This document shows positions 36,835-61,934 of a DNA stretch of 64,000 nt, piece by piece (within the stretch, counting starts at the first letter, position 1; every line of letters begins with the position of its first letter). This stretch comes from a virus (taxonomy: Duplodnaviria > Heunggongvirae > Uroviricota > Caudoviricetes). The stretch lies in the IMG/VR virus record IMGVR_UViG_3300035696_001272; one strand, 5' to 3'. The notes under the pieces were generated by a model. That model was not told the origin of the DNA and did not search any database. It saw nothing but the letters and a program-made list of their open reading frames with translations. A program made the translations under genes and the position numbers.

Positions 36835-36842
36835 ATAGGTGT

Positions 36843-38288: not shown

Positions 38289-38292
38289 AATT

Positions 38293-44682: not shown

Positions 44683-44840
44683 AACTACTGAAGTGCAAGC
44701 TATGTTTGGGTGAAATTGATATCGTCGGAAACGAACGCTCTGTCAACAGAAAAGTAAAATGTCAGAAGTGCGGATTCACAAATGAATTCGAGAACAAAGG
44801 TCCGGAAGTTGTTGTGATTAAGAAGCGTCCTGTCCAATGA
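44679..44840 (+). CDS. small zinc-ribbon protein (53 aa; not in the ORF track)
   Basis: ATGA overlap; CKLC...CQKC. Confidence 0.3.
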   Translation: MKLLKCKLCLGEIDIVGNERSVNRKVKCQKCGFTNEFENKGPEVVVIKKRPVQ

Positions 44841-47770: not shown

Positions 47771-48678
47771 TATGCTCTCTTGAAAAAGTTGAGGGTAGAT
47801 TGTATACCGGCATCGATTGTCCAACCAGAATTCCATCCCTTTGAAATTAATTTGTCTGCACTTAACATAGTATATAGCATTTCGCCAGGCACAGCGTCAG
47901 CATGGATTACTTGTGATGTACTATTAAGCATGTTTAGTATCTTATCAGCGACTTGGTTTACGCTCGTTTGTGTATTGGAACTGACATTGAAGATGCCATC
48001 TAATTCAGACTCCATCGCCAACATATTAGCGGAGACTACATCATCTATATATACAAAGTCTCTGGTTTGTTCTCCATCACCAAAAATAGTCAGATTTTTA
48101 TTCTCCAAAGCATTGTTTATGAAGATAGAAATTACTCCAGCCTCTCCTTTAGCATTTTGGCGCGGCCCATAGACATTGCTGTACCTCAATACAGTGTATT
48201 GCAATCCATGTATCTTGCGAAACATCTCTAGGTACTTTTCTATTGTTAATTTGGCCAATCCATATGGAGACTCTGGTTTTGCTTCAGATGATTCCGTAAA
48301 AGGCAGAGCGGCATCAACCGAATAGATAGCTCCACCTGTAGAAGAAAAGATTACTCTTTTGACTTTATGCCTGACACAGTTTTCTAAGACATTAAGACTA
48401 CCTACGATATTAGTCAGAGCATCTTGCTGAGGTTCCCTAATGGAATGTCGTAAATTAATTTGAGCTGCTAAGTGGAAGACGTAATCAAAGTTATACTTAG
48501 CAAATAAATCATCGAGAGAATCAGTGATACTTCTCTTTATGAAAATACCGCCATGTATGTTATCAAAATTGCCCGTTGACAGATTGTCTATTATAATTAC
48601 TTCATGACCGAGTTTAACTAGTGCATCAACTACATGGCTTCCAATAAATCCAGCACCACCGGTAACTAAAATGTTCAT
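47770..48678 (-). CDS. NAD-dependent sugar epimerase/dehydratase (GalE-like extended SDR)
   Basis: ILVTGGAGFIGSH; YGLAK. Confidence 0.65.
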   Translation of the reverse strand: MNILVTGGAGFIGSHVVDALVKLGHEVIIIDNLSTGNFDNIHGGIFIKRSITDSLDDLFAKYNFDYVFHLAAQINLRHSIREPQQDALTNIVGSLNVLENCVRHKVKRVIFSSTGGAIYSVDAALPFTESSEAKPESPYGLAKLTIEKYLEMFRKIHGLQYTVLRYSNVYGPRQNAKGEAGVISIFINNALENKNLTIFGDGEQTRDFVYIDDVVSANMLAMESELDGIFNVSSNTQTSVNQVADKILNMLNSTSQVIHADAVPGEMLYTMLSADKLISKGWNSGWTIDAGIQSTLNFFKRA

Positions 48679-48679
48679 G

Positions 48680-49786
48680 TTATTTGCTTTTTATATAGTG
48701 ATTGAGGGTGTCCAATATATGATTCTGTTCCGCACCGCTCAACTCTGGATAGCTAGGTAAAATGAAACACTCTCTATTAAGAGTTTCAGCATTGGTGCAA
48801 TCACCATACGATACAACACAGTTATTGACCAAATGTGTGTGAGCGCTGATAGGGTAAAACATTGGTCGTATCTCTATATCATTGGCTTTGAAATATGCTT
48901 CTGCTTTATCGTAGCTACCATTGCTAGGAACTCTGACACCAAACATCCAGTTCGAGTGCTCAGTATTAGGAGCTTGCTTTTGGATGAACACATCTTCCCT
49001 ATTATTTAGAGCATTACAATAATTACCAAAAACAACTTTTTTCATATCAATAATATCTGGTAATATTTCTAATTGACCAAATAGAATAGCTGCCTGTATA
49101 TTAGTCATTCTATAATTATAACCAAGCTCTTTATGAACGAATCGTTTGTCAGATTGCCCTTGCCCATATAAACATTTCGCAAAAAAATAAGCATCCTCAT
49201 CGTTGGTAACGAAAGCTCCACCTTCTCCACTGGTTATGTTCTTGTTTCCAAAGAAGGAAATAGCGGAGGCGTAGCTGGCAGTGCCGGAGTATTGATCTTC
49301 ATAGGTTCCTAAAAAACCTTCACAGTTATCCTCTACAAATAAAGTGTTAGGATATTTTCTTTTTAATTCTGGAACATTGATAATGTTTCCGATGTTGTGA
49401 ACTACTAACACAGCAGCACTGGGACACATTTTGATAGTTTGATCCAGCTTTTCTAAATCATAATTCCAAGTATCAAGTTCGCACTCTACAGCAAATAATT
49501 CATAGCTAGAGTCAAATAAAAAGGCATTCCAGGCAGCCACATATACATTGTTTGGGACGATGATGGCATTTTTACCGTGTTTAGTCGAGAGGCACTTTGC
49601 TAATAAATGACAGGCGCTTGTGCCATTGTTTAATGGTAAAACGTATTTGACTCCTAATAATTCTTGTAGCTTTTCTTGTACCATCACTAAATACTTACCG
49701 TGCGAAGAAAGCCAAGTTGAATCTATAGCATCGTGTACATGCTTAAGAGAGCTGGAAGGTAAGTATGGTTTGTAAACGGGGATCAT
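48680..49786 (-). CDS. DegT/DnrJ/EryC1/StrS-family PLP sugar aminotransferase (GDP-perosamine synthase-like)
   Basis: LPLNNGTSACH; SFFGNKNITSGEGGAF (PLP-Lys region). Confidence 0.65.
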   Translation of the reverse strand: MIPVYKPYLPSSSLKHVHDAIDSTWLSSHGKYLVMVQEKLQELLGVKYVLPLNNGTSACHLLAKCLSTKHGKNAIIVPNNVYVAAWNAFLFDSSYELFAVECELDTWNYDLEKLDQTIKMCPSAAVLVVHNIGNIINVPELKRKYPNTLFVEDNCEGFLGTYEDQYSGTASYASAISFFGNKNITSGEGGAFVTNDEDAYFFAKCLYGQGQSDKRFVHKELGYNYRMTNIQAAILFGQLEILPDIIDMKKVVFGNYCNALNNREDVFIQKQAPNTEHSNWMFGVRVPSNGSYDKAEAYFKANDIEIRPMFYPISAHTHLVNNCVVSYGDCTNAETLNRECFILPSYPELSGAEQNHILDTLNHYIKSK

Positions 49787-50436
49787 TTAGATTTGATAGC
49801 TATTCCAACACCAGGCATATTTTTTTCATAGTTATGATATTCTAAATCTGGGAAAATGCTCCTCATACCATCGAAAACTTCTTTTAATCCTGCTAGGACG
49901 ATATCATCAAATAATAGAATGCCACCAGGACTTAGATGCGGTATAACATTTACAAGATCATCAATAGCGCCTTCTCTGGAGTGATCTCCATCTACCAATA
50001 TTAAATCAAATTGCATCGTCGGGTTCTTTTGGAAGAATTCTGGTATTGTCTTATGACTATCTCCACTAATGAAATGAATCTCTTTTTGATAACCTAATTT
50101 CCTCATTTCATTACCTACAAAATCTGGTCCTGGATTAGCAATACCGGCATAGTCGTATTGCCACATATCAAAACTGTAAATCTCACACTCTGGTACCGTA
50201 GCGCAGACCATGCCCAATGACCACCCTCTTCTAGTGCCTATCTCTAGATAGTTTTTAGGATGAATTTTTTTGGCAGCCCAATACACAAAGCTTCTAGTTT
50301 CAGCTTGCCCATTATTTAGTAAATTCATTAGTTCAGGACCAATTACCAAATCAGGAGTCATTGTGTTAATTATTTTCTGGACAGCTTGAAAATTTTCGGG
50401 TCTTAAAACTTCTTGGAATAATTCTTCAGATTGCAT
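49783..50436 (-). CDS. class I SAM-dependent (O-)methyltransferase
   Basis: LEIGTRRGWS; LILVDGDHS. Confidence 0.55.
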   Translation of the reverse strand: MQSEELFQEVLRPENFQAVQKIINTMTPDLVIGPELMNLLNNGQAETRSFVYWAAKKIHPKNYLEIGTRRGWSLGMVCATVPECEIYSFDMWQYDYAGIANPGPDFVGNEMRKLGYQKEIHFISGDSHKTIPEFFQKNPTMQFDLILVDGDHSREGAIDDLVNVIPHLSPGGILLFDDIVLAGLKEVFDGMRSIFPDLEYHNYEKNMPGVGIAIKSK

Positions 50437-50446
50437 TTCGCCGCCT

Positions 50447-50773
50447 TTAATATGTTTTATGTTTTCTTTGCAAAAATTTACCGTTATCTAACTCTTCGCC
50501 TGACTGTGCGGCTTCCACGATCTCTATAATTTTTTCGTCAACTTCATCAATTAGCTGATTGCGCTGCACATTCAAATCACAAGCTTTTTTGAGGCTATCC
50601 CATAAAATTTGGGCACCTTCTTCAGAAAAGTATTTTGCTTTATACTCTTCGAAAGTCATTCGACGAATCTCGTAAAGCAATTCTTGATTGTTCCACATTT
50701 TCAAGTCGATTGTAATTAACTTATCAATCAACCCTCCAAGAGTATCAGCCATGGTTTTTCTCCCTGTATTCAT
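50447..50773 (-). CDS. hypothetical protein
   Basis: 108 aa. Confidence 0.35.
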   Translation of the reverse strand: MNTGRKTMADTLGGLIDKLITIDLKMWNNQELLYEIRRMTFEEYKAKYFSEEGAQILWDSLKKACDLNVQRNQLIDEVDEKIIEIVEAAQSGEELDNGKFLQRKHKTY

Positions 50774-51311
50774 GTTCCAATTTTTCTAATCGCTCTCTAT
50801 TTCTGTAACCCAATACTCGTATTGGGCACCCCGCCACAATTGTGTATTCTGAAACGTCTTTACTAATTAAGCTTAACGCTCCTACCGAAGATCCAACTTT
50901 TAGGGTAATATTCGGTAAAATGACACTGCCACAACCGACTATGACGTGTCTCTCTAAAGTAACTGGTCCGGCTTCTACCTTCTTATACTCATCTGGTACG
51001 GTAGGACCAGTTAAATATCCTTCTTTATAATCATCTGTAGCTGTAAAAATATTGCATCGCGCCGCCATTCCTACAAAATCTTCTAGGGTAATAAGCCCAC
51101 CATTACCAGCGAGTTGTACATTGAATGCAATATGTACATTGTTGCCTATGATGATTCCCTTACCGGCAGATAAAAAAGATAGAGCATCAATTCTAACATT
51201 GGAACCAATATGAATATTTTCTGGGTGAATGAACTGAACTGAGGAGTCAATCTGGACGTTTTCTCCACAACTGCCAAAGCGCTTCAAATCTTCTTTCGAT
51301 AATGTTTTCAT
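50745..51311 (-). CDS. hexapeptide-repeat (LbH) sugar N/O-acetyltransferase
   Basis: Repeated [LIV]G..[ST]x..V hexapeptides (IGSNVRIDALSFLSAGKGIIIGNNVHIAFN). Confidence 0.55.
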   Translation of the reverse strand: MKTLSKEDLKRFGSCGENVQIDSSVQFIHPENIHIGSNVRIDALSFLSAGKGIIIGNNVHIAFNVQLAGNGGLITLEDFVGMAARCNIFTATDDYKEGYLTGPTVPDEYKKVEAGPVTLERHVIVGCGSVILPNITLKVGSSVGALSLISKDVSEYTIVAGCPIRVLGYRNRERLEKLEHEYREKNHG

Positions 51312-51386
51312 TTGTTTTTCTAACCGTCAACGTGGTTATATCAATATTATTTTATCCCTATAGTGCTCGTCATGCGGATGCGGTAA

Positions 51387-52625
51387 ATGATGCTAAAAAC
51401 AACGTATCAAATTTTTGATTCTTCAGCCGGAAAAACAATAGTTTTCCGTAATCTTTATTTTATAGATGGGAAATTTATTTTTAATGGCACAGCATCTGGC
51501 TCTGAAATTGCTACTTATCCTAATGTTCATTATCGCCATACTAAACGTGAAACTTGGGCGCCCGCAATAATGGAATTGCCAGACCAAAATGATGTTCCAG
51601 TTGTTACAACTCCTCATTTTTATTTAAAAGAATCTGTCAACAATTACATAACTCACGCTTTAGCAGATGATGTGTTTTCTGTTTTTTATAGTCTCTATCG
51701 ATGTAGAATTAATTACAACCCATGCGTTTGTATCGTAGAAACATCTGGTGGCGAAACGTTTCATGATTGTAAAGGAATATTTAGATGTCTTTTTGGACAA
51801 GAAGCTATTGGACTTAATTGTCTTAAAGAAACATACTCACAAGTTTGTTTCGAAACTTTTGTTGTAGGAAATGGAGATTCTGGTTCCATTTCTTTCGATT
51901 CTAATTATGCAAGTCCATTTCAAGATAATATTTGGAGACAATTTAGGGATGCATATTACAAGGAATCTGAGATCGATTTAGAAGTAGGTAAGAAAATACT
52001 TTATGGGGATGCAGGCAAGTTTCCCATTCAAAGTGACCTTAAAGACATATTATTAACAAATAATGTTGAAATTATCCGCTGGGACTATGTAGGTGATATC
52101 AAAGAACAGTTAAGAATACTTAAAGGTGTCAAAATTTACATTACAACCGACGGTGCCCCGGCAATAAATACTATCTTTCTTCCAGATAATGCTATAGTAA
52201 TAAATTTGGGAAGAGTATATGCAAATGGAAATTATAGAGTTCTTGGCTATTGTTCATGCCCTCTTTTCCCAGCCCTATCTCACATAGATGTTTTTTATTT
52301 TGAAGATTATTATTTGAATTATCATAAAGCACAAGATCCTTATCCAAATCCGGGCGATTTAATGGATATGATTGAGTCTCTTAATGACAAACAAAAAAAA
52401 ACGCATCTATTACAAAGGCGTGCAGAAATTTATGATAATTTTGCCTTAAAGGTTATGAACAAAATCGACTGTGCCCTCAAGCTAAATAACTTTTCTCCGA
52501 ATGCCCGCTTGCTACTTGAAAATTATTCGAATCTTGAGGAAAGAGACAAAGTAATAGAAGAGCTTAAGCGAGGAAATACAACATTTGAGTGTAATGAAAA
52601 AGTTCGTCCATTTAGAGTACCTTGA
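51387..52625 (+). CDS. putative glycosyltransferase (GT61/DUF563-like)
   Basis: ITTDGAPAINTIFLPDNAIVINLG resembles the GT61 G.HGAGL.N..F.P.GA.VIE motif. Confidence 0.35.
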   Translation: MMLKTTYQIFDSSAGKTIVFRNLYFIDGKFIFNGTASGSEIATYPNVHYRHTKRETWAPAIMELPDQNDVPVVTTPHFYLKESVNNYITHALADDVFSVFYSLYRCRINYNPCVCIVETSGGETFHDCKGIFRCLFGQEAIGLNCLKETYSQVCFETFVVGNGDSGSISFDSNYASPFQDNIWRQFRDAYYKESEIDLEVGKKILYGDAGKFPIQSDLKDILLTNNVEIIRWDYVGDIKEQLRILKGVKIYITTDGAPAINTIFLPDNAIVINLGRVYANGNYRVLGYCSCPLFPALSHIDVFYFEDYYLNYHKAQDPYPNPGDLMDMIESLNDKQKKTHLLQRRAEIYDNFALKVMNKIDCALKLNNFSPNARLLLENYSNLEERDKVIEELKRGNTTFECNEKVRPFRVP

Positions 52626-52655
52626 GTGATGCAATGATATACATTTTGGAAGGAA

Positions 52656-53459
52656 ATGATGAAAAAGATAGTTAGCTATAGCCTTTACAACAACAGACCA
52701 AAAGACGTAATAAACGCCATTATCAACTGCCTCCTACTCCCTAAGATTTATCCCGATTGGACTGGTAGGTTTTATGTTGATGACACCATTCCTACCTGCA
52801 TAGATAAACTCCTCAGATCATTTGATTATATTGAAGTTATAAACATGCCGCGCCACAAAGGTAGCGAAGCTATGTTATGGAGATTTTTACCAGCCGCAGA
52901 ATATGATACCGTCATGATTTCCAGAGATGCTGACTCTTGGTTGTCAGTTAGAGAAAAGGTTTGTGTTGATCAGTGGCTTGCGAGCAACAAGAATTTTCAC
53001 ATCATTAGGGACCATTGCTATCATAGTCAGAAGATTATGGGCGGTATGTGGGGCGTAAGAAACTATATTTTACCTAAAATGGCTGAGGAAGTAGACGCTT
53101 TCTGCAAGACTGGCACATATGATCAGGGTTTCTTAGCTGATAGAATCTATCCTAACATTACCCATGACCTGATGGTACATTACGGTAATCCACAATACAA
53201 TAATCAAGGACAACTTGTCAATGGTTATTTTAATGATGGCGGCATTCCAATTCCTGCCTATCAAGAATGGGATGAACCAGTTCCAGGACTTTCATTCCGT
53301 GAAGCCAACACTATAAATACTTTTTTCTGTGCTCACTGCAAAAAACATCATGATGTTCTCATCGGTGGAATTACAGAGCACGTTCCACCTCGTGCTATGC
53401 AAGTGGTGAGGGACTACGCTGCAAACAAAGGAATCACTCTAGACTCTCCGCCATTCTGA
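52656..53459 (+). CDS. putative GT-A glycosyltransferase (DxD)
   Basis: MISRDADSW DxD-like motif; 267 aa. Confidence 0.3.
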   Translation: MMKKIVSYSLYNNRPKDVINAIINCLLLPKIYPDWTGRFYVDDTIPTCIDKLLRSFDYIEVINMPRHKGSEAMLWRFLPAAEYDTVMISRDADSWLSVREKVCVDQWLASNKNFHIIRDHCYHSQKIMGGMWGVRNYILPKMAEEVDAFCKTGTYDQGFLADRIYPNITHDLMVHYGNPQYNNQGQLVNGYFNDGGIPIPAYQEWDEPVPGLSFREANTINTFFCAHCKKHHDVLIGGITEHVPPRAMQVVRDYAANKGITLDSPPF

Positions 53460-54233
53460 TTAGTAGAAATACTTCAGAAACAGATCCATTCTTAGTTTGT
53501 GTCCAGCTGCAAAGACTGGGTTCTCAGCGTTCCATTGGGATCCCGCCATGTAGTGGTAGAATCCTTCAGCTACCCAACCAGCACTCAAACCGTGGGCTCT
53601 AGCGATTTCCAAATCAGCCTTATAATATTCTCCAAGCGGCTCACCTTCAAGCGTGCGTACAAAGTAAGAAATTTGATGGTTAGCCAAGAACTTAACTGCA
53701 TTGGGAAACTTTTGAATAAATTCTCTAGTTCTTCCGCCTGTATCTAGTCCTGGCTCTAAACCAAAATCCAAATCTTGAACATTACTCAAACGCTTCATAT
53801 TGACCATCGTAAGAGCGGGATAAAGGTAAGTAACGCCCACACCATTCCTAATCCTGAATTCTGTTGTAGCTGCGACGGTATGTTCTCCCAGAATTTCGGA
53901 AACATTGACATCACAAATAGGAAATACATCTGTATGTATGAGAACAATAATTTCGCAATTATTCTGGGGAGCATAGACATGCATTGCCCAGTTTAGTGTA
54001 GCGGCATAACCCTCGGAAGGGTTTTGAATTACGTGAATCTGCTGTGGGACTCTTACGCACTTGATATTGTTACACGCAGCTATCGTATTAATGTTGTGTT
54101 CCATCTGAACATCCATGGCATCATTAAATAAAATGAATTCAAAATCTTCTTTCATATACTTCTTGTATTGTCTGTGCATGACATCGATTGGAAACTTGTC
54201 ATTTACAGCAAAAGCAAAAATAGTTACTTTCAT
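53460..54233 (-). CDS. hypothetical protein (possible glycosyltransferase)
   Basis: 257 aa; convergent stops TGA/TTA at 53457-53462. Confidence 0.35.
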   Translation of the reverse strand: MKVTIFAFAVNDKFPIDVMHRQYKKYMKEDFEFILFNDAMDVQMEHNINTIAACNNIKCVRVPQQIHVIQNPSEGYAATLNWAMHVYAPQNNCEIIVLIHTDVFPICDVNVSEILGEHTVAATTEFRIRNGVGVTYLYPALTMVNMKRLSNVQDLDFGLEPGLDTGGRTREFIQKFPNAVKFLANHQISYFVRTLEGEPLGEYYKADLEIARAHGLSAGWVAEGFYHYMAGSQWNAENPVFAAGHKLRMDLFLKYFY

Positions 54234-55126
54234 ACAGACTCCATAGAGCTAACGGTTTTTTCCAGTCCGGCCTTTAATGATGTGAAAGAAATATCTGGCA
54301 TTATTGTTTTCAGATAAGAGTTGCTAACAGTTTTTATTAGGTTTCCATCTGATTTGCTAGTATCAAATTGTATTTGATTTTTGAAATTCAGCACCTCTGC
54401 TATTTGATTTGCCAACTCGGCAATAGTAATTTCAGTATCTGCACAACAAATGATTGGCTTGGTATCTGAGTAATTTACAACTAAATGTTTGATTATTCTA
54501 GCTAAATCAAGAGAGTAAATGAATTGTCGTAATGGTTTTCCTGTTCCATTGATTACTACATCTGTATTATCTTTAGATGCCTTTTTAAATTTAGTGATGA
54601 GATTAGGGATTAATCGACCTGAGCTTAGATTATCGTTTGGCCCATAGATATTGCAGGGAATAATTCCAAAATATTTTTTCTCATATTGAGTATTATAATT
54701 TTGACATTGTAATTCTAGCATTCTCTTGGAATAAGAATAGCCGGCAAAAGCGCCAGTTAAATGACCATCAAAAATCATTGATTCATCCATTGGGAAAGCT
54801 TTTGGCTTTTCAGGGAACATATTCACAGAAAGACAGAACATGCCCCTCTCCACTCCCGCCAAGCTAGAAGCCTCTAGCACATTTTCATTTATTCTTACGT
54901 TGCTGGAAAAGGAGGCAACCCTGTCAATGTTGTAAAAACCCGGAACGTAGGATGCCAGATGAACCACATAGTCTGGATCAATTCTTTTGAACATCTCAAT
55001 AGTGTGCTCTTTATTCGTAAGATCACAATCTCGCCTATCGGCAAAGAACCAGTTGTCTTCGCCTTCACACACGGATTTCAAAGCGCTTCCTACACAGCCA
55101 TTGCTGCCTGTCACAAGAATTTTCAT
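54230..55126 (-). CDS. Fcl-like NAD(P)-dependent sugar epimerase/reductase
   Basis: ILVTGSNGCVGS; YSYSK; NIYGPNDN...IPNLITKF parallels Fcl (LYGPHDN..IPALLRRF). Confidence 0.55.
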   Translation of the reverse strand: MKILVTGSNGCVGSALKSVCEGEDNWFFADRRDCDLTNKEHTIEMFKRIDPDYVVHLASYVPGFYNIDRVASFSSNVRINENVLEASSLAGVERGMFCLSVNMFPEKPKAFPMDESMIFDGHLTGAFAGYSYSKRMLELQCQNYNTQYEKKYFGIIPCNIYGPNDNLSSGRLIPNLITKFKKASKDNTDVVINGTGKPLRQFIYSLDLARIIKHLVVNYSDTKPIICCADTEITIAELANQIAEVLNFKNQIQFDTSKSDGNLIKTVSNSYLKTIMPDISFTSLKAGLEKTVSSMESV

Positions 55127-56307
55127 GATGGGTAACTCAATAGTATATCAACCAACTCTTCAACTAAAGAGTCGGGCATCAGGTTGCACGATAAGCCGAT
55201 AAATAATCCACTAAAATGGCACTCCTCGGCCCCCGGAAAATCAAGAGCGTTTAAATCAGAATACAGATCTTTGATGACCGGTTGTCTAATTATGTTACCA
55301 GTAATAATTGGCCTATTCTCAACGCCATGGGTAGTTAGGTAATCTAAATAATCCGATAACTTAATATCTTTTCTTAAAAACAAAGTTACACCAAACCAAG
55401 CTATGTCGGCGTTGTCACTTTCCTTAGCGAAAGAAAGAAAGGTACTTCTTGGATCGCTTTCTATTTTTCTTTTGATATTGTAATAGTTTATCTTTCTATT
55501 ATCATTCTTGACTTTCAACTTTTGAAGTTGGCCAATACCCATTGAAGCCTGTATTTCCATCGGCCTTACATTGTAACCTAAATTGACAAACGTAAACCTT
55601 GGGTCCAAATCTGGATATTGTGCTTGGATTTGTTCTTCGTCTTTTAGATTCCTAGACCATCCATGAGCACGAAGACACTTCATTAGTTCATAGTGTTCAT
55701 TGTCATTACAAATTATCATTCCACCTTCCATTGTTGTTATGTGGTGGGAGTAATAAAATGAATATGTTCCAATAGAGCCAAAAGTTCCCAAGTATTTGTC
55801 ATTGTATTTAGAGCCTAATGACTCACATGTATCTTCTATCAAAATTAAATTGTAGCGGGTAACGATGTCTATTAGTTTCTTCATATCGGTACAGTTTCCA
55901 AGGACATGAACAAGCATAATGGCTTTTGTCTTATTAGTTATCTTTTTTTCAAGATCATACAAGTCTATATTCAAAGTTTGTGGATTTACATCAACAAATA
56001 TTGGAGTAAGATTACATTGAATAATGGGGAAAATGCTGGTAGACCAACACAGTGCCGGAACCAAAACTTCATCTCCCGGAACTAATCTATTATTACATTT
56101 GTAATTTGTAAGGACAGATAAAGCAATCAGGTTGGCCGACGAACCAGAATTTACCATCATTGCATGTTTGATCCCAATATATTCAGCAAACATTTTTTCG
56201 AAACTACTAACCTGTTCACCCATGGTAAATTTTCCAGTAATTAAAGTTTCGATCATGTTGAGAATATCTTCAGAATCATGAACATTTTGTCCCAATGGAA
56301 ATTTCAT
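55123..56307 (-). CDS. DegT-family PLP aminotransferase/dehydratase (second copy)
   Basis: MVNSGSSANLIAL; TYSFYYSHHITTMEGGMI. Confidence 0.6.
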   Translation of the reverse strand: MKFPLGQNVHDSEDILNMIETLITGKFTMGEQVSSFEKMFAEYIGIKHAMMVNSGSSANLIALSVLTNYKCNNRLVPGDEVLVPALCWSTSIFPIIQCNLTPIFVDVNPQTLNIDLYDLEKKITNKTKAIMLVHVLGNCTDMKKLIDIVTRYNLILIEDTCESLGSKYNDKYLGTFGSIGTYSFYYSHHITTMEGGMIICNDNEHYELMKCLRAHGWSRNLKDEEQIQAQYPDLDPRFTFVNLGYNVRPMEIQASMGIGQLQKLKVKNDNRKINYYNIKRKIESDPRSTFLSFAKESDNADIAWFGVTLFLRKDIKLSDYLDYLTTHGVENRPIITGNIIRQPVIKDLYSDLNALDFPGAEECHFSGLFIGLSCNLMPDSLVEELVDILLSYPS

Positions 56308-57371
56308 TTTGTGCTCGCGATACTGGTAAGTATTTCTTGCCAGCTATTATAAATGGATGCCCTTCTCATCTCATTATGGGTGGCCATACTGTTACTGATT
56401 TCATGCGTATTTACTATTCGTAGTAAATGTTCTAGGTGAGCTGGCGAATCAAAGTATTGAATGTGTTTCATATTCCCCTCATCATAAAAATCACAAGTAT
56501 CTAGCCATTTATTCAAAACTGCCGGATTACGAAGACTATTAGGATTATTAATATCATCTGGCTCTTGCGCCCTATTTATTCTGTAAAAAGTCAAATCAGA
56601 CAAAGCTCTATTTTGATGAAACAATTCTTTCATGTATGTTTTAGATGGGAAAAACATAGGAACATTTGCAGTATAGTGTTCGAATATTGACATGGATCCA
56701 TTATGATAGGGCACATGAATTGTCCCCTTATAACTATAAAGATCCTGCCAACTATATCTCCAGGAGGAATTTCTAACTGCCCCAAGACTGATGCATATAT
56801 TACCAGGAACCGTTATTTCTGATCGATCATGGATAACATATTGGTTTTTAGTTCCAGTATATTTTGCATTTGTATATTCACATAAACTTGGAATATGCAT
56901 GCCTTGAATTCCAGTCATATATTGTGTGTACCACTGATCGCCCTTATTATTACAAACGTAATATAATTTTCCTTCTGTATGTCGGCGCTTTAAAAATTCG
57001 TTCAATCTATCTCTGAGGGTTGGATTAAAAGTATTGGGATGATCGTATCTAATACAGTTTACTATTATAATCGGCTTATTGAATTTTTCATAAAGAAGCG
57101 CAAATTCTACCGGATAACAGGCAATAAAGGCATCATATTTTTGTAATTCATCTTTATTTTGCTGATAAAATTTATCGCAAACTTCTTCGGTACAGACTCC
57201 TGAACAAGTTAATTGTGTACCATCACTAAGCATAATTTTGGGTTTTGGTTTATTCATCACCCAATGATGGCCAGATAAAGACCAATCAACTACTTCATGT
57301 CCCAGATTTTTAAAGATATATGCTATGTCAGCGATTACTGAAACGTGCTGGTCTATATTGAAAAATTTCAT
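56304..57371 (-). CDS. hypothetical protein in the glycan cluster
   Basis: 355 aa; no motif. Confidence 0.35.
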   Translation of the reverse strand: MKFFNIDQHVSVIADIAYIFKNLGHEVVDWSLSGHHWVMNKPKPKIMLSDGTQLTCSGVCTEEVCDKFYQQNKDELQKYDAFIACYPVEFALLYEKFNKPIIIVNCIRYDHPNTFNPTLRDRLNEFLKRRHTEGKLYYVCNNKGDQWYTQYMTGIQGMHIPSLCEYTNAKYTGTKNQYVIHDRSEITVPGNICISLGAVRNSSWRYSWQDLYSYKGTIHVPYHNGSMSIFEHYTANVPMFFPSKTYMKELFHQNRALSDLTFYRINRAQEPDDINNPNSLRNPAVLNKWLDTCDFYDEGNMKHIQYFDSPAHLEHLLRIVNTHEISNSMATHNEMRRASIYNSWQEILTSIASTK

Positions 57372-57979
57372 TTGCCTTTACCTTTCGCTTTCTTTTGTAC
57401 CTTTTTAGATAAGCGAATACAAACTTGGGACTTATGTTCGAGATAATACATTTCAACATCATGATCCATCATGTATGGAGTCATGATATTATATAGCGTG
57501 TATGGAGAAAACCAGTACTTATGATCTGGGTGAACGGACTCTACACAATATTCATCATGCATAAATAATTGTCCGGTTCCCATATTAGGAACGGTTATTA
57601 TTATCTCTTTGTGCTCGATAGCAAATAAACTGTCTAAAAACTCTTTAGCATTCCAAACGTGTTCTAATACTTCAGGAACAATAATCACATCATATTTAGA
57701 ATCGCATTCTTTAAAATTTGTGAAATAAGTTCCTGGGCACGCTTCATTTAACTTGTCTAAATACATTTTGTTTGTATCTACACCATGCAATCTCTTAACT
57801 TTTTTAGCTAGATAGATATGAAGGTTGCTATCAGGATCGAAAACCATTGCATCAGCACAACCCACATGTAGAGTTTTCTTTTTAGCACAAATCTTTTCGA
57901 AGAATTTAAACCTATGTGTACCAATATTTTTAATAGTGATATACTGGACAAAAAAATCGTTTGTCCTATTGTAAGTCAT
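57368..57979 (-). CDS. class I SAM-dependent methyltransferase
   Basis: LHVGCADA (motif I); VLEHV. Confidence 0.5.
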   Translation of the reverse strand: MTYNRTNDFFVQYITIKNIGTHRFKFFEKICAKKKTLHVGCADAMVFDPDSNLHIYLAKKVKRLHGVDTNKMYLDKLNEACPGTYFTNFKECDSKYDVIIVPEVLEHVWNAKEFLDSLFAIEHKEIIITVPNMGTGQLFMHDEYCVESVHPDHKYWFSPYTLYNIMTPYMMDHDVEMYYLEHKSQVCIRLSKKVQKKAKGKGK

Positions 57980-58689
57980 ATTCTAATCCATTCTTTGGGT
58001 AACAAGTCTTTTGTATCATGTGGTAAAGCTGGACCAAACCAACCCTGTGGAGCAATAACGATTTTGGAAGGGCTTTTGTTCAGATAAGCTCCCCACCACG
58101 AAAAGCTACTATTAGCAATGATAGTGTGCTCACAATTTGCCATCATCGCTAAATCTCGTGCAGGAGATCCGCCTTCATAAAATATGATGTTGTCACCATG
58201 GAAATTCGCCCTGCACCAGGCCATGTCATCTGAAAATATAACATAGTGTTTTGATGATATCATTTGCATGGCTGTAGCATAATAATTCATATCTAACTGA
58301 ACATATTCTCGTCTGAGATTGAGATAATCTCCTCTGCGAACATGTACTGCCGTATGATTATAATGGATACCAAACCCCATTTTAGGTGTGAAAAGGCTTT
58401 GTATAACATCTTTAGAATCAGCGAAATACTTTTCTGATTGAAAATATCCTTCGAGATTCAAATTTGGTCGATAAGGAATTTTGGTGTATGTAAATCCTGG
58501 CTCTCTGAATGTATCAAAATTTGGAATGTTATTGGCAAAACATTCAATCAAATTAAAATTGGGCGCATCTGGCCATGGTGGAAATACATAGTCATCATTA
58601 TTTTCTACAGCCAATGCCACGGTGGCAGCCATTTGAAATAACTGATTACCCAATCTTCCTAAGTTTCCCAAGTTTTTAAAAGAAATCAT
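57976..58689 (-). CDS. alpha-1,2-fucosyltransferase (GT11 family)
   Basis: GRLGNQLFQMA (GT11 motif I); AVHVRRGDY (HxRRGD). Confidence 0.65.
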   Translation of the reverse strand: MISFKNLGNLGRLGNQLFQMAATVALAVENNDDYVFPPWPDAPNFNLIECFANNIPNFDTFREPGFTYTKIPYRPNLNLEGYFQSEKYFADSKDVIQSLFTPKMGFGIHYNHTAVHVRRGDYLNLRREYVQLDMNYYATAMQMISSKHYVIFSDDMAWCRANFHGDNIIFYEGGSPARDLAMMANCEHTIIANSSFSWWGAYLNKSPSKIVIAPQGWFGPALPHDTKDLLPKEWIRI

Positions 58690-61094
58690 TGGCGTATATT
58701 ATGATGGTCCTTGTCCAGTAGCATAATTCTTGGATGGAAAACATTGCCACCCCACATCTTTTTGTATCTTTCGATATTAGACTGTGGATAATGATAACTT
58801 GGTGTTAGGCTCAATGGCGGATGATCTAAGAAATATCTGTTAATAGCAGTTTCATCATGCCAAACTGGAATGATACCATTAGATACATCTTTATCAATCA
58901 TATCGCTACACCAGCTGGACAGTGCCAAATAATTGGCCTTTTTACCTCCACTAAATCCACCACCATAGTATTGCTTATACTTACTGCGATCTTGAACATA
59001 AAATACTGAGTTTGGATTTTCTTCGTAAGGTCCAACCCTTTGGACAAATCCACAGTGTTGTACGCCAACTAAATCGCCTAAGATTTCGCTATTTACGCGA
59101 TCAACAAATAAGCAATCTATATCTACATAGAATAGATAATCTTGTCTATTCAGCTTGTCAGCATTTTTGGTAAAGTGTTTGAATCTATCCATACTAGCAT
59201 ATGGGAAGGGTCTGTGCTCGATGTTTATCTGAACTATATTGCGCTTACTACTAATTGTATGATTGGCGTCACTAAATAGAAAATAAGTGACATCATAGTT
59301 ATCATCCATAAAGTAATTGTCTGCCGATGAAATAAGTCCTTGAATAAATCTATGATATTTACCGGTTGCTATAAGTAGCAATCCTATGGCAGTTTTTGGT
59401 ACTGGTGGCCTTTGAGTTCTTGCATATCTCGGTTTGCTTCTAATGAAACCGTCCAAACTTGCTTGCAATTGACGACTGACTTTGTGATCATTAATTGGAT
59501 TATCAAGATTGTACACATATAGTATGTCAGATAAAAATTGAGAATGTGAGCCGGACATTTCCAACATTGGGAACATCATGGCAAAATCCCAAGTCATCTG
59601 GAAAAAGACACCGTCCTTCATCAAATCTTCTTTTTTGATTCTCTTAAATAACCAGGTATAAAAGGTTCTCAAGTGAGAAGCGCCCCATCTAAATGATCTG
59701 AATGAATTTGAATCTACCACTTCCTGTGGATAAGGAGAGGATACGCCGCCCTGACCATCTGTACTGTTTTTATATTGACCATAAGTCAACCAGATATCTC
59801 GACTGGTGTAAACTTCTCTTAGGCGACCAAGTACATTATCATGTGGAAACCAATCATCACCATCTAATGTAAGGATGATCTCATCATCATCACAGCTCAT
59901 GATCATGTTGTATAGGTTGGCGAGAGCGCCCATACGAGTAGTATTTTTTATCAAAGTAACTCTGTAAGCATTGGGTGAAGCATTAACTGCTTCACTTACC
60001 TTAGCAAAGGTATCATCACTAGAACAATCATCGGTGAAGATTATTCTGAACTTGTCGTAATTTTGAGTTAGGGCAGAATTAATATTTTGAACACACCATC
60101 TGCTATTATTGTAGCTTGGAATAACGATGACAAATCTTTTGTTAGGATCTTCAAAGCTAGGCACCCCGTTTGGCGCTGTGCTTAATTGTGGGGGTGGCGG
60201 TGGGGTTGGAGCTGGTGTATTATTGCCAGTATCCCAAACCAATTTATCTCCAGATACTTTCCAGGTCCCTGTTGTTGCCTGAGTTGTCGGCTGTGGCTGC
60301 TCTTGTGTTTGAACATGATGTGAGGTTGGTGGTTTTGGACTGGCCGTTAAAACAAGTGGCGGTATATTCGGTTGCGTAACTTCAGCAAAACCCATATTTG
60401 AATTAACTGGCTGTAAAGTTATTGCTTGTTGTGGCGGCAACACATCCTGAACTGTATTGGCAACAGTATTTTTAACGGCAAACCAAATTCGTCGTTTATT
60501 TAGAGAAGTACTATTATCATTCTGGGACTGCCAGTCGTATACATAATCACCCGCATTAAATTTGGCATTGTCCATACGTTTAAAAGTCATTCCACAAGCT
60601 GTCAAAACTCTTTCGATGGCTGCTGCGGTTGGTCGACATCCCATACCACTATAGGCCAAATCATAAACGTCCTTTCCCTCTGGAACTTGAACGCACATGT
60701 TTGGATCACTAGAATCACAAACGGCAGTCTCTAGTACTAAATAAGTAGTAGAAGCACAAACTGCCTTCAAATGATCTTCGAAGGAAGCTAAATGGCAGAT
60801 TAGAGCCAAATCTAAAATCAAATCAAATTTCTGACCAAAAAAAGGCCACGGACCATCCAGGTTGGCCTTGACCACCTTGACACCAGCAAATTTCTTGCTT
60901 ACTATCTTTAAGTGCTCTTGGCGGGCATCGATGGCGGTTATTTCTGAGCCTAAACGATATAAAGAGCCACTTAGATCAGCGTGCCCACATCCCAAATCAG
61001 CTATTTTCTTGCCATAAAATTCTTTGTAGCCATAGTATTCTATGATGGCCTTGATACGCTTTTGATTCCATTCAAAGTACTTACCGTCAAACAT
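58686..61094 (-). CDS. tri-domain protein: SAM methyltransferase - Pro/Thr/Gln-rich linker - GT2 glycosyltransferase - GT6 (ABO/alpha-1,3-Gal(NAc)-transferase-like) domain
   Basis: IADLGCGHADLSG (MTase motif I); FVIVIPSYNN...FTDDCSSDDT (GT2); C-terminal YYGGGFSGG...NGIIPVWHDETAINRYFL parallels the human ABO/a3GalT segment YLGGFFGGSV...NGIEAVWHDESHLNKYLL. Confidence 0.6.
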   Translation of the reverse strand: MFDGKYFEWNQKRIKAIIEYYGYKEFYGKKIADLGCGHADLSGSLYRLGSEITAIDARQEHLKIVSKKFAGVKVVKANLDGPWPFFGQKFDLILDLALICHLASFEDHLKAVCASTTYLVLETAVCDSSDPNMCVQVPEGKDVYDLAYSGMGCRPTAAAIERVLTACGMTFKRMDNAKFNAGDYVYDWQSQNDNSTSLNKRRIWFAVKNTVANTVQDVLPPQQAITLQPVNSNMGFAEVTQPNIPPLVLTASPKPPTSHHVQTQEQPQPTTQATTGTWKVSGDKLVWDTGNNTPAPTPPPPPQLSTAPNGVPSFEDPNKRFVIVIPSYNNSRWCVQNINSALTQNYDKFRIIFTDDCSSDDTFAKVSEAVNASPNAYRVTLIKNTTRMGALANLYNMIMSCDDDEIILTLDGDDWFPHDNVLGRLREVYTSRDIWLTYGQYKNSTDGQGGVSSPYPQEVVDSNSFRSFRWGASHLRTFYTWLFKRIKKEDLMKDGVFFQMTWDFAMMFPMLEMSGSHSQFLSDILYVYNLDNPINDHKVSRQLQASLDGFIRSKPRYARTQRPPVPKTAIGLLLIATGKYHRFIQGLISSADNYFMDDNYDVTYFLFSDANHTISSKRNIVQINIEHRPFPYASMDRFKHFTKNADKLNRQDYLFYVDIDCLFVDRVNSEILGDLVGVQHCGFVQRVGPYEENPNSVFYVQDRSKYKQYYGGGFSGGKKANYLALSSWCSDMIDKDVSNGIIPVWHDETAINRYFLDHPPLSLTPSYHYPQSNIERYKKMWGGNVFHPRIMLLDKDHHNIRQ

Positions 61095-61122
61095 ATTTAA
61101 CCTTATTAGTATTAGGTTTTAT

Positions 61123-61869
61123 TCACATCGCAGGACCATGATATGGAATAAAAACTGGTTTGGTATGACCCATATAAGCATAACAATTTTGATGAAATTT
61201 AGCTAGATTATCTTTGTGGCACTTGGTTTTGAACTCTCGATATTCACCAACATCTAAAGCTCCCTCTCCAAAATGGACGCCCTTATTTTTAAGATAACCC
61301 ATTTCCCAACCCTTCATACGAGCACGGAAGTAGAAGTCGGCGTCTTCTTCGCCATAAAGCCCGTAATCAGTAGTAAAGAAACCAATTGCCTCATGAAGCT
61401 CTTTATGGAATACTGAACAAGCAGTTCCTAAATTACCAATTGGTTTTAGCTGAAATGTTTTACCATTTCTAGTTACCATAGGAAAACTTGTGGTTTCAAA
61501 ATTAATACCAACTGCTATTTTATGATTATCACTGATAATATCAGTACATTCTGTTAACCAATTGTCTGATAATTCAATGTCATTATCAATTGTACATAAG
61601 AATTCAGAATCTGGTGTGAGTTTGTCGGCTAAGAGCAAGCCCTGATTTCTACCAGCAGCAATACCTTCATTAGCTGCATTGAGATGAAGGTGGCAAGTTA
61701 TCGGAGATTTTTCTTTAAATGCTGTCAACCAATCTTGAGTTCCATCAGTGGATCCGTTATCCACAACTATCAATGTATAGGGACTTTTGGTATTAGCGAG
61801 CAAGCTATCTAACATTCGTTTGGTCAATTCGAGTCGGTTGTAAGTTACCATCATTATTGAAGTCGTCAT
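61123..61869 (-). CDS. GT2-family glycosyltransferase
   Basis: IMMVTYNRLELT...LIVVDNGSTDGT; internal DNDIE. Confidence 0.65.
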   Translation of the reverse strand: MTTSIMMVTYNRLELTKRMLDSLLANTKSPYTLIVVDNGSTDGTQDWLTAFKEKSPITCHLHLNAANEGIAAGRNQGLLLADKLTPDSEFLCTIDNDIELSDNWLTECTDIISDNHKIAVGINFETTSFPMVTRNGKTFQLKPIGNLGTACSVFHKELHEAIGFFTTDYGLYGEEDADFYFRARMKGWEMGYLKNKGVHFGEGALDVGEYREFKTKCHKDNLAKFHQNCYAYMGHTKPVFIPYHGPAM

Positions 61870-61934
61870 GATAATCTCTCATATATCTTGATGATGAGGG
61901 TACATATTTTTTGGTATATAGAAAAGGAAATTAA

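Follow-up and report, generated by a model that had tools for sequence, protein, structure and literature searches.

The question raised by this locus is whether one long viral reading frame encodes a methyltransferase and two glycosyltransferases in a single polypeptide and, if so, which glycan such an enzyme would build and on what acceptor. The window, by which we mean the whole stretch of 64,000 nucleotides analyzed, carries the gene on its minus strand, with the following domains and motifs.

58686..61094, (-): MTase-linker-GT2-GT6 fusion, 802 aa, an ATG-to-stop ORF with its TGA stop at 58686-58688
60462..61094, (-): domain 1, aa 1-211, class I SAM-dependent methyltransferase (PF13649, PF08241)
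60984-60998, (-): MTase motif I DLGCG, aa 33-37
60144..60461, (-): Pro/Thr/Gln-rich linker, aa 212-317, disordered, with a weak beta-hairpin at aa 277-288
59415..60143, (-): domain 2, aa 318-560, GT2 (GT-A fold, inverting family; PF00535)
aa 354-356, (-): GT2 UDP-binding TDD
59853-59864, (-): GT2 DXD motif DGDD, aa 411-414
58689..59414, (-): domain 3, aa 561-802, GT6 (retaining alpha-1,3-Gal/GalNAc-transferase family; PF03414)
59115-59123, (-): GT6 DXD, D658-I-D660
59049-59057, (-): GT6 H680/G682
58956-58964, (-): GT6 G711-G712-G713
58851-58862, (-): GT6 W745-H-D-E748
58692-58721, (-): GT6 C-terminal L792..K795..R801

The 802-aa ORF contains three Pfam domains, each above its curated cut-off, and the AlphaFold2 model (mean pLDDT 87.6) has three globular domains with a disordered stretch at residues 212-311. 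This bears out the composition and order given in a preliminary description of this DNA (methyltransferase, low-complexity linker, GT2, GT6), and the strings quoted there are located in the protein: IADLGCGHADLSG at aa 31, PPTSHHVQTQEQPQPTTQATTG at aa 255, PAPTPPPPPQ at aa 294 and FTDDCSSDDT at aa 353. The fusion is genuine and no assembly artefact, because the same 802-aa protein is found on 5 contigs without a single difference and more than 100 homologue clusters, 42-69% identical and on contigs of up to 478 kb, keep the three domains in frame. It likewise holds against a frameshift or stop in the linker, with all catalytic motifs conserved in 85 aligned full-length homologues, and across the fusion family the conserved set comprises DLGCG, TDD/DGDD, D-V/I-D, GGGFSGG and WHDE. 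The domain composition and the conserved fusion are far beyond chance.

The N-terminal domain is modeled with pLDDT above 90 as a confident Rossmann-like fold of alternating beta and alpha elements, with a glycine-rich motif I and an acidic residue after beta2, as in class I SAM-dependent methyltransferases. Methyltransf_25 (PF13649) matches at aa 31-104 with 33.8 bits against a cut-off of 27, PF08241 matches with 31.9 bits against 21.2, and residues D33, L34, G35, G37 and D56 are each conserved in at least 90% of sequences. The best PDB match is weak (8k76, an uncharacterized MTase, E 4.9e-5). A stand-alone homologue of the domain lies within a GT2/GT6 cluster of a MAG (locus L027); a role as sugar O-methyltransferase is predicted only from context, namely this homologue and the two fused glycosyltransferases. 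In the linker that follows, pLDDT is below 50 at residues 212-241, 243-275 and 291-311, and Pro, Thr, Gln and Ser make up 50% of the residues versus 19% in the remaining protein. Alignment occupancy drops there to 0.11, linker length runs from 42 to 403 aa in 119 homologues, in frame throughout, and in other family members this site has taken up a whole domain, a second MTase in P0012 and a GT1-like one in P0078.

The second domain matches Glycos_transf_2 (PF00535) at aa 323-433 with 60.8 bits against 23.3 (E 2e-16), is modeled with pLDDT above 90, and has D355, D356 and D411-G412-D413-D414 invariant in 85 sequences. Its PDB relatives are all GT2 enzymes, for example TarS-type 5tze, heparosan synthase and SpsA. 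The best named relatives cover its N-terminal half only (E about 1e-10), and the best NCBIfam matches, WcaA and TuaG, score about 40 bits where the cut-offs are near 400, leaving no specific equivalog. In a 642-kb phage (L002, LR756502) and in many MAGs, this module is encoded by a gene of its own.

The third domain, also modeled with pLDDT above 90, matches Glyco_transf_6 (PF03414) at aa 567-771 with 107 bits against 25 (E 1.1e-30) and NCBIfam Gltr_6 (NF041524) with 181 bits (E 2.4e-53), the latter below the subfamily cut-off of 250. By sequence it matches BoGT6a (4ayj) at E 2.5e-36 and human GTA/GTB at about 1e-24, with 30-34% identity to characterized GT6 enzymes; by Foldseek it superposes on BoGT6a with a TM score of 0.88 and an rmsd of 1.8 Å, and on human GTA/GTB with a TM score of about 0.71. 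The donor and acceptor residues of BoGT6a map to H680, G682, F683, Y709, W745, H746, D747 and E748, and these mapped contacts are conserved in 98-100% of sequences. The catalytic Glu (E303 in GTA, E192 in BoGT6a) is E748 of W745-H746-D747-E748, whose D and E are kept in 119 of 121 sequences. D658-I659-D660 aligns with N95-A96-N97 of BoGT6a, and D..D is likewise present in 119 of the 121 family sequences. These residues place the domain in the DXD (metal-dependent) phage/Parachlamydia clade, and as a DXD-type enzyme it is predicted to need metal.

The acceptor side of this domain suggests a fucosylated substrate, since it retains residues with which BoGT6a and human GTA hold Fuc-alpha1,2-Gal. 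In GT6 enzymes of the A/B-synthase type, A1 is His, A2 is Gly or Ser and A7 is small and not Trp, which leaves room for the 2'-fucose. Positions A1 and A2 are H680 and G682, both invariant, and His/Gly at these positions is the pattern of enzymes with fucosyl acceptors, while alpha3GalT has Gln/Trp. The fucose-pocket residue A7 did not align by sequence, and L792 is proposed for it solely from its spacing to a conserved Lys (K-3, as I228/K231 in BoGT6a and W356/K359 in alpha3GT). Thr134 of BoGT6a, which contacts the acceptor O6, aligns with Pro689, and GTA position 266 is Gly, where the cited characterized wild-type enzymes have Leu, Met or Ala. The domain stops just after the catalytic tail, without the basic-hydrophobic-basic (BHB) membrane-association domain.

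The genes around the fusion extend this picture.

57976..58689, (-): GT11 alpha-1,2-fucosyltransferase-family protein, 237 aa, downstream (PF01531, E 4e-33)
61123..61869, (-): stand-alone GT2, 248 aa, upstream (PF00535, E 5.3e-22)
57368-57979, (-): p203, weakly MTase-like, conserved operon partner with an ATGA overlap
56304-57371, (-): p355, of no family, conserved operon partner with an ATGA overlap
45759-46763, (-): gmd (TIGR01472, 431.7 bits against a cut-off of 415)
44818-45762, (-): GDP-L-fucose-synthase-like gene (NF047922 Fcl is the best match, 258.5 bits, below the cut-off of 500)
44818..61869, (-): 17-kb glycan cluster of 18 genes, two of them on the plus strand

The GT11 ATG overlaps the TGA of the fusion by 4 bp (ATGA), one of six consecutive ATGA junctions in the operon. 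Besides glycosyltransferases and MTases, the cluster encodes nucleotide-sugar enzymes, aminotransferases and an acyltransferase. None of its 18 proteins has a predicted transmembrane segment (no 19-residue window exceeded a Kyte-Doolittle hydropathy of 1.6), and no initiating transferase, flippase (Wzx) or polymerase (Wzy) is found among them. The upstream stand-alone GT2, which is conserved 5′ of the fusion in viral loci, has a weak galactosyltransferase-type C-terminal match (PF02709 Glyco_transf_7C, E 0.022); from this match, it may itself be the enzyme that adds Gal, in which case the fused GT2 would act at another step.

Across relatives, the GT2 module adjoins GT11 in all 19 viral loci where both were seen; GT2 and GT11 are fused in one of these loci, and GT6 is absent from five, which together suggest that GT2, GT11 and GT6 catalyze successive steps, of which the GT6 step is terminal and dispensable. 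GT6 is optional in related phages, some of which have only GT2 and GT11 while others have these two fused; Dependentiae/Chlamydiae-type MAGs encode each module separately. JGI names for family members include 'glycosyltransferase.../SAM-dependent methyltransferase' and 'histo-blood group ABO system transferase'. Phage origin is indicated by Shine-Dalgarno-like motifs at 32% of starts versus 8% in the background, by strong PHROG matches, by IMG/VR viral contigs and by an adjacent ICL/malate synthase pair of a kind reported in huge phages. We read the gene as genuine and its product as a soluble enzyme with three functions in glycan synthesis, belonging to a bacteriophage of very large genome (about 0.4-0.5 Mb).

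Since the fusion lies in an operon with a fucosyltransferase and with GDP-fucose genes, its product is probably a methylated sugar cap resembling blood group A or B. In the reading we prefer, to which we give a probability of roughly 55%, the phage makes this cap by soluble GT2, GT11, GT6 and MTase steps, with virion proteins as the slightly favored acceptor. In the infected cell, the inverting, DXD/metal-dependent GT2 domain would add a beta-linked sugar, most likely the acceptor beta-Gal, to which GT11 would add alpha-1,2-fucose from phage-made GDP-fucose (gmd and the fcl-like gene). The retaining, metal-dependent GT6 domain would then extend the fucosylated Gal with GalNAc or Gal in alpha-1,3 linkage; small Gly residues at GTA positions 266/268 would favor GalNAc and hence a blood-group-A-like trisaccharide. 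Finally, the MTase on its flexible tether would O-methylate a sugar of the terminal epitope as a cap. The order 'transfer, then transfer, then methylate' proposed in the preliminary description is therefore incomplete, since the GT6 domain keeps the residues for Fuc-alpha1,2-Gal and a separately encoded fucosylation, by the GT11 gene at 57976-58689, must come before it. All cluster proteins are soluble, the GT6 domain lacks a membrane-binding tail and Wzx, Wzy and an initiating transferase are missing from the cluster; a soluble acceptor, namely phage structural proteins, is therefore slightly favored over host O-antigen or capsule, and virion glycosylation has precedent in phages.

The same chemistry could instead be directed at the host envelope (O-antigen, capsule or S-layer glycan): an infected or pseudolysogenic cell with a remodeled surface would be closed to superinfecting phages, and the lipid-carrier, flippase and polymerase machinery would be the host's. 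We regard this as a real possibility, if not a probable one. Published work has proposed it for the homologous 'LPS' clusters of cyanophage P-SSM2, where GT11, MTase and GT6 occur together, and of other jumbo phages (PMC1079782, PMC7824862); the bacterial GT6 enzymes WbnI and BoGT6a work in O-antigen synthesis, and soluble glycosyltransferases can still use Und-PP-linked acceptors at the inner membrane face. Against it stand the solubility of all 18 cluster proteins, the missing initiating phosphoglycosyltransferase, flippase and polymerase, and a GT6 domain without the BHB domain that bacterial O-antigen GT6 enzymes have (PMC3516806).

It is unlikely, in our estimate, that the GT6 domain is not of blood-group type at all, using another sugar or a non-fucosylated acceptor, with GT11 adjacency reflecting a shared pathway only. 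Identity to characterized enzymes of 30-34%, the Pro at the Thr134 equivalent and the Gly at position 266 would fit such an enzyme, and the cluster also makes amino- and possibly dideoxy-sugars, so the glycan may be more exotic than a plain A/B antigen. However, the A1 His, A2 Gly, stacking Trp and the His-Asp-Glu triad that contacts O4/O6 of donor Gal/GalNAc are invariant, and the one prokaryotic DXD-clade enzyme to have been characterized, PaGT6, is an A-synthase dependent on a fucosylated acceptor; moreover, GT11 is coupled to the fusion by the ATGA overlap and adjoins the GT2 module in related viral loci.

Glycosylation of DNA is a common anti-restriction measure in large phages, as with the T4 DNA glucosyltransferases, and the cluster might on that ground modify the phage's own DNA (glycosylated hypermodified bases) and not a protein- or lipid-linked glycan. 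This is very improbable: known DNA glycosyltransferases, to our knowledge, fall outside GT2, GT6 and GT11, the GDP-fucose, aminotransferase and acetyltransferase genes are typical of oligosaccharide synthesis, and the acceptor-site residues of the GT6 domain are suited to a disaccharide. Last, the idea that the domains are really separate genes, joined by an assembly or sequencing frameshift in the linker or by a mis-called ORF, could draw on the low-complexity linker DNA and on the separate modules of P-SSM2, LR756502 and the Dependentiae/Chlamydiae-type MAGs, but is effectively refuted already by the identical protein on 5 contigs, by the in-frame linkers of all 119 homologues, by the same single ORF in seven independent viral or NCBI loci and by a GT2-GT6 junction that is short, constant in length, conserved and fully occupied in the alignment.

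In a broader and more doubtful extension of the preferred virion-protein reading, huge phages would use the fused enzyme and GT11 in the cytoplasm of the host to assemble a methylated epitope of histo-blood-group-A/B-like type and show it on their own virions. If so, the presence or absence of the terminal GT6 in otherwise syntenic phages would be a phage 'ABO-like' polymorphism, with the architectures MT-GT2-GT6, X-GT2-GT6, GT2 and GT11 only, and GT2-GT11 fusion; lectins, grazers, host receptors or competing phages would exert the selection that maintains it. On this view, phages and giant viruses share a circulating pool of such DXD-type modules with protist-associated bacteria (Dependentiae, Chlamydiae), and that pool has been proposed as the source of vertebrate GT6.

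Among known systems, one close to the third domain is GT6 'clade 1', the minimal DXD-type prokaryotic and phage enzymes that include cyanophage P-SSM2 gp268 and Parachlamydia acanthamoebae PaGT6, a metal-dependent A-type GalNAc-transferase that acts on H-antigen and needs a fucosylated acceptor (PMC3516806). The phage domain shares with this clade the DXD in place of NXN, the missing C-terminal BHB domain, a core of about 235 aa and an occurrence in phages and protist-associated bacteria, and it is 36% identical to the P-SSM2 GT6. Unlike the clade's minimal stand-alone catalytic domains (P-SSM2 and PaGT6, about 230 aa), however, this core is aa 561-802 of a three-domain protein, placed after MTase and GT2, and the MTase gene beside the P-SSM2 GT6 is unrelated in sequence to the fused MTase. 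With BoGT6a and human GTA/GTB, the domain shares the fold, catalytic Glu, His-Asp-Glu donor triad, stacking Trp and A1/A2 His/Gly. In contrast, BoGT6a has NXN and is metal-independent, vertebrate GT6 enzymes have a stem region and a type II membrane topology, and position 266 is Leu in GTA, Met in GTB and Ala in BoGT6a. None of these enzymes is fused to further catalytic domains. The earlier statement that known GT6 enzymes are single-domain holds only for those characterized biochemically; multi-domain viral GT6 entries exist in BFVD/UniProt. One of them, A0A5J6VM96 (958 aa; 540 aligned columns, E 6e-26), is named 'Glycosyltransferase family 6' and stems from a Megaviridae environmental sample; like a Catovirus entry named 'glycosyltransferase and methyltransferase domain protein', it combines GT6 and/or GT2 with MTase modules, though such multi-domain viral GT-A entries are only 19% identical and differ in length and architecture.

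The pathway resembles that of E. coli O86, in which WbnJ, WbnK and WbnI build the B antigen in sequence, WbnI being a GT6 that uses a Fuc-alpha2-Gal-beta acceptor (PMC4506291; PMC4202792). Both loci hold the trio GT2, GT11 and GT6 with a GDP-fucose supply, and the logic of beta-Gal, then alpha1,2-Fuc, then alpha1,3-Gal/GalNAc is the same. In O86, however, the enzymes are separate, the acceptor is Und-PP-linked and Wzx/Wzy are present, whereas the phage cluster has one polypeptide for MTase, GT2 and GT6, encodes soluble proteins throughout and has no genes for lipid-carrier machinery.

An architectural parallel is chlorovirus PBCV-1 A064R, a 638-aa protein with two rhamnosyltransferase domains and a methyltransferase that finishes and methylates the terminus of the viral glycan; one more methyl group comes from A061L, an MTase encoded on its own (PMC9614988). 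A064R and the phage fusion are both soluble viral proteins that combine two GT domains with a single SAM-MTase domain, and A061L has its parallels in p203 and in the tandem-MTase variant P0012. In contrast to the phage order MT-GT-GT, its families GT2 and GT6 and its predicted Gal/GalNAc, A064R has the order GT-GT-MT, a GT-A/GT34-like and a novel family, and rhamnose, and its source is a eukaryotic virus. The best 50 BFVD structural matches of the fusion do not include A064R; compared in this way, it is probably an analogue and not a homologue, with a resemblance in function and architecture only. The preliminary description had called the assembly line undescribed for GT6 enzymes: no MTase-GT2-GT6 enzyme was found in the literature searched, but the concept of a viral GT-GT-MTase is known from A064R (PMC9614988). 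The MTase-GT2-GT6 fusion is a new architecture made from known kinds of enzyme, functionally analogous to chlorovirus A064R.

An ATG-initiated open reading frame of 802 aa lies at 58686..61094 (-), exactly where the preliminary description had placed it, and the peptide strings quoted there were found at aa 31, 353, 255 and 294. The three-domain content claimed for it was borne out by non-overlapping sets of Pfam matches, all above curated thresholds:

Pfam matches in the 802-aa fusion protein
aa 6-168, class I SAM-dependent methyltransferase (MTase): PF13649, 33.8 bits versus 27; PF08241, 31.9 bits versus 21.2
aa 321-433, GT2: PF00535, E 2e-16
aa 567-771, GT6: PF03414, E 1.1e-30

By the membership criteria tested for each family, the protein is a GT6, a GT2 and a class I MTase. 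An AlphaFold2 model built from 85 homologues (mean pLDDT 87.6) agreed on the domain boundaries, with three globular domains at ~1-211, 318-555 and 565-800, and left aa 212-311 disordered apart from a weak hairpin at 277-288. The low-complexity character of this linker was likewise confirmed, with P, T, Q and S together making up 50% of it versus 19% of the rest of the protein.

The fusion is genuine: a frameshift or stop within the linker, proposed as the result that would split the domains into separate genes, is contradicted by four observations. Five separate contigs, two of them of 0.2-1 Mb, yielded the identical 802-aa protein, and a search of 5.8 billion proteins (E <= 1e-10) returned 893 matches, of which the top ~107 are nearly all full-length (732-805 aa, 42-69% identity), share the MTase, GT2 and GT6 Pfam content and lie on contigs of up to 478 kb. 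When 121 sequences were aligned, the three domains were well conserved, occupancy across aa ~210-318 fell as low as 0.11, and the linker ranged from 42 to 403 residues (median 70), in frame every time; the short GT2-GT6 junction (aa ~541-566) was found in all sequences aligned. An assembly artefact is thus ruled out by the repeat contigs, the in-frame linkers and the independent loci carrying the same ORF. Catalytic signatures are all conserved, including MTase motif I (x-DLGCG), the GT2 TDD and invariant D411-G-D-D414, and the GT6 D658-x-D660 (119/121 sequences), G711-G-G713-F-S-G-G and W-H-D747-E748. Because every one of them is conserved, purifying selection acts on all three domains, each of which is presumably active.

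The fusion gene sits within a 17-kb glycan cluster encoded mostly on the minus strand:

Main features of the glycan cluster
44818-61869, mostly (-): whole cluster, 18 genes
45759-46763 (-): gmd, TIGR01472, 431.7 bits versus a cut-off of 415
57976-58689 (-): GT11 alpha-1,2-fucosyltransferase-family gene immediately downstream of the fusion, E 4e-33
58686-61094 (-): MTase-GT2-GT6 fusion
61123-61869 (-): stand-alone GT2 (upGT2), directly upstream of the fusion

The other nucleotide-sugar genes are a GDP-L-fucose-synthase-like gene, a GalE-like epimerase and a second Fcl-like reductase, and the cluster also holds two DegT-family PLP enzymes (one LegC/PseC-like, one RfbH-like), a hexapeptide acyltransferase, two more methyltransferase-like genes and several ORFs without a family. 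The GT11 ATG overlaps the TGA of the fusion gene, and five further junctions downstream are likewise ATGA. Because these overlaps fall at consecutive junctions, the fusion, GT11, p203 (the gene after GT11), p355 (the gene after that), the RfbH-like and Fcl-like genes and a 257-aa ORF form one translationally coupled operon. Scans of 44-63 kb for sigma-70 promoters (72 versus 65.9 expected) and intrinsic terminators (11 versus 12) were at chance level, so operon boundaries could not be defined in that way. No transmembrane segment was predicted in any of the 18 cluster proteins.

Several further observations concern this region. The RfbH/ColD-like PLP enzyme and the second Fcl/ColC-like reductase (54230-56307, -) share the ATGA-coupled operon, with gmd near, and these family matches suggest a GDP-3,6-dideoxyhexose (colitose-like) branch beside GDP-fucose. 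The 355-aa product of p355 (56304-57371, -) matches no family in Pfam or NCBIfam; related phage loci conserve it downstream of GT11 (63-80% identity). It is weakly similar (20-24%) to GT6-adjacent ORFs in three Dependentiae-type clusters from metagenome-assembled genomes (MAGs; L006, L013 and L014 among the fetched comparison loci), and is a candidate novel transferase in the same pathway. Just past the cluster, a 195-aa ORF without a family match (62833-63420, +) has a Ser/Thr/Pro-rich stretch ...SQPSTSTTSTTTATVPTPP... and a poly-Gln C-terminus; speculatively, mucin-like tracts, the fusion's own linker included, could be O-glycosylation acceptors. An 81-aa TTG-start ORF (61931-62176, -), antisense inside a NifU-like gene (61935-62375, +; PHROG and Pfam NifU), is almost certainly spurious.

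Among solved structures, the GT6 domain is matched best by Bacteroides ovatus BoGT6a (E 2.5e-36, 34% identity) and the human ABO transferases GTA and GTB (about 1e-24), and its model superposed on BoGT6a with a TM score of 0.88 and an rmsd of 1.8 Å. Contacts taken from the BoGT6a work (PMC3516806) and transferred through a HMMER alignment mapped His122 to H680, Gly124 to G682, Phe125 to F683, Tyr153 to Y709, Trp189 to W745, His190 to H746, Asp191 to D747 and Glu192 to E748, all eight invariant or nearly so across the family; one mismatch is Pro689 at the equivalent of Thr134. At the level of sequence, His at acceptor-site position A1 with Gly at A2 is the pattern of Fuc-alpha1,2-Gal-accepting enzymes; alpha3GalT has Gln at A1 and Trp at A2 (PMC3516806). 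Where the metal-independent BoGT6a has N95-A-N97, the fusion has D658-I-D660 instead, a motif that assigns it to the DXD clade, of which cyanophage P-SSM2 and Parachlamydia PaGT6 are typical. PaGT6 was shown to require metal and to use only fucosylated acceptors when it transfers GalNAc (PMC3516806). The equivalents of GTA Leu266 and Gly268 are both Gly (G711 and G713). The choice between A and B activity depends mainly on residue 266 (PMC4202792), and we predict UDP-GalNAc as the donor, or dual specificity, because a smaller residue at this position should leave room for the N-acetyl group. A search with the C-terminal 62 residues left the last 30 unaligned to any solved GT6. The A7 fucose-pocket residue would be the invariant L792, three before the invariant K795, since BoGT6a (I228/K231) and alpha3GT (W356/K359) have the same K-3 spacing, and Leu at this proposed position is compatible with fucose. 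The catalytic tail K795...R801 is the end of the polypeptide, which may be why GT6 is C-terminal in nearly all fusions seen.

The GT2 domain has canonical DD and DXD motifs and structural relatives that are exclusively GT2 enzymes, with no equivalog among NCBIfam models that fixes its sugar, and the MTase, of typical class I fold, has relatives too weak to be informative; the roles of both were therefore assigned from genomic context. From the observed anatomy, namely conserved motifs, fold, gene coupling and synteny, we infer a pathway of four steps. The GT2 domain, or possibly upGT2, would install a beta-linked Gal, to which GT11 would add alpha1,2-Fuc from phage-made GDP-Fuc; the GT6 domain would then add alpha1,3-GalNAc or Gal in a Mn2+/Mg2+-dependent reaction, and the tethered MTase would O-methylate the terminal epitope. 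As to the target, the literature on cyanophage 'LPS' clusters favours host-surface remodelling (PMC1079782, PMC7824862). Glycosylation of virion proteins, which has precedent in mycobacteriophages, is at least as likely here, because the machinery is entirely soluble, the GT6 is without a membrane-binding tail and there are no lipid-carrier genes. DNA glycosylation was considered and rejected.

Comparison of synteny across 99 fetched loci showed which modules travel together. Seven viral or NCBI loci have the order upGT2, MTase-GT2-GT6, GT11 and p203, with p355 too in the fetched DNA of five, and six have upGT2, X-GT2-GT6 and GT11, where X is an N-terminal region of ~400 aa in the place of the MTase. 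At L093 (IMGVR_UViG_3300033074_001876, 4887-7512) there is an 875-aa X-GT2-GT11 fusion with no GT6 within ~6 kb, and at five further loci (L094-L097, L099) a stand-alone GT2 adjoins GT11, again with no GT6 within ~6 kb. These architectures show that the GT2 module and GT11 are inseparable and that GT6 is a terminal, dispensable addition, resembling A/B synthesis relative to H-antigen synthesis.

The N-terminal part is modular: among homologous proteins of the family, P0012 has two tandem MTases, P0078 an extra GT1-like domain and P0108 the X region. In this sister architecture (P0108-P0120, ~890-900 aa; viral loci L085-L092), X looks beta-rich and has no Pfam match; it may serve in carbohydrate binding or as a novel catalytic module. 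The GTDB MAG loci (L005-L081; labelled Dependentiae/TM6, Chlamydiae, Verrucomicrobia and others) carry the GT2 and GT6 modules as separate genes, with up to six tandem GT2-module paralogues, often beside GT11 and Fcl-like genes (e.g. L034, L035, L051). These paralogues and the separate DXD-type GT6 have hydrophobic N-termini, whereas the phage versions are soluble. A GT2-GT6 fusion occurs at one MAG locus only (L035), and an MTase homologue stands alone in one MAG cluster (L027). Viruses binned in error may account for some of the 'bacterial' contigs of 0.44-0.74 Mb. In the 642-kb phage LR756502, a 241-aa GT2-module gene lies directly upstream of the gene for a 530-aa GT6-domain protein. P-SSM2 is not a plain 'split' version of the fusion, since its GT6-adjacent methyltransferase has no similarity to the fused MTase (E 83) or p203 (E 1.2).

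That the source is a huge bacteriophage of roughly 0.43-0.48 Mb is well supported, falling short of proof because the 64-kb window holds no structural gene. Contigs of >400 kb, a PARP and a Megaviridae match in BFVD suggested a giant eukaryotic virus; this was rejected on the enrichment of SD-like motifs (before 32% of starts versus 8% background), the ATGA-coupled operons, strong PHROG matches for many ORFs (TyrRS 2e-115, nucleotidyltransferase 1.4e-68, HNH endonuclease 1.9e-57), the bacterial-type IF3 and M23 peptidase encoded with PTH2 and Thg1 in the source contig flanks, and the adjacent isocitrate lyase and malate synthase genes, a pair reported by a 2025 preprint in 20 'huge phage' genomes. 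IMG/VR viral contigs of 130-428 kb carry full-length homologues of the fusion. When the gene and window positions 1-25000 were compared with 50,697 phage records by Megablast, neither gave a match, so that collection includes no close sequenced relative, and tblastn of the isocitrate lyase against phage records gave mostly bacterial-type or contaminant records, uninformative on lineage. The window also carries:

Other gene sets in the window
7198-8430 (+) and 8430-9947 (+): isocitrate lyase followed directly by malate synthase, a complete glyoxylate shunt
10073-11473 (+): 466-aa protein with WGR, PARP-regulatory and PARP-catalytic domains, a eukaryote-style architecture
9955-16283 (+): 11 tRNA genes (4 Leu, 1 His, 3 Glu, 3 Arg), then TyrRS at 17951-19144
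25664-39540 (+): RNA-repair set, with an RlaP-like nucleotidyltransferase (25664-26812), a Pnkp-like kinase/phosphatase (34804-35799) and two RNA ligases (36843-37604 and 38293-39540)
CobS/CobT-like proteins are also encoded.

The human A and B antigens and the alpha-Gal epitope are products of GT6 enzymes, whose scattered occurrence in vertebrates, a few bacteria and some phages has long been a puzzle of horizontal transfer. Judged from its sequences, a whole huge-phage lineage appears to carry a DXD-type GT6 as the end module of a fused three-activity enzyme, its gene coupled translationally to the fucosyltransferase predicted to supply its acceptor, with GDP-fucose phage-encoded. As a 'Rosetta stone', the fusion ties its GT2 and MTase modules to one pathway with GT6, along with the homologues that stand alone in Dependentiae and Chlamydiae, and the presence or absence of GT6 among related phages is a natural series through which the value of blood-group-like caps to a virus could be examined. 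It is also a compact soluble enzyme, probably easily expressed, for chemo-enzymatic synthesis of (methylated) A/B-type glycans.

The statement that known GT6 enzymes are single-domain is true of characterised enzymes and of the literature searched, where we found no described multi-domain GT6, but not of databases: BFVD entries include a 'GT6' protein of 958 aa with multiple domains, from a Megaviridae environmental sample, as well as several viral GT-MTase fusions, and members of the fusion family are already auto-named at JGI. Multi-domain viral GT/MTase enzymes and phage GT6 genes were both known already, and the fusion is a new architecture built of known kinds, widespread in huge phages, rather than categorically new. 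Within GT6 it falls in the DXD prokaryotic and phage clade, though not as a minimal stand-alone domain. The GT2/GT11/GT6 logic has a bacterial precedent in the successive action of WbnJ, WbnK and WbnI in E. coli O86 (PMC4506291, PMC4202792). A viral precedent for one polypeptide with two GT domains and an MTase is PBCV-1 A064R, which completes a glycan and methylates it, and is followed by a second MTase, A061L (PMC9614988).
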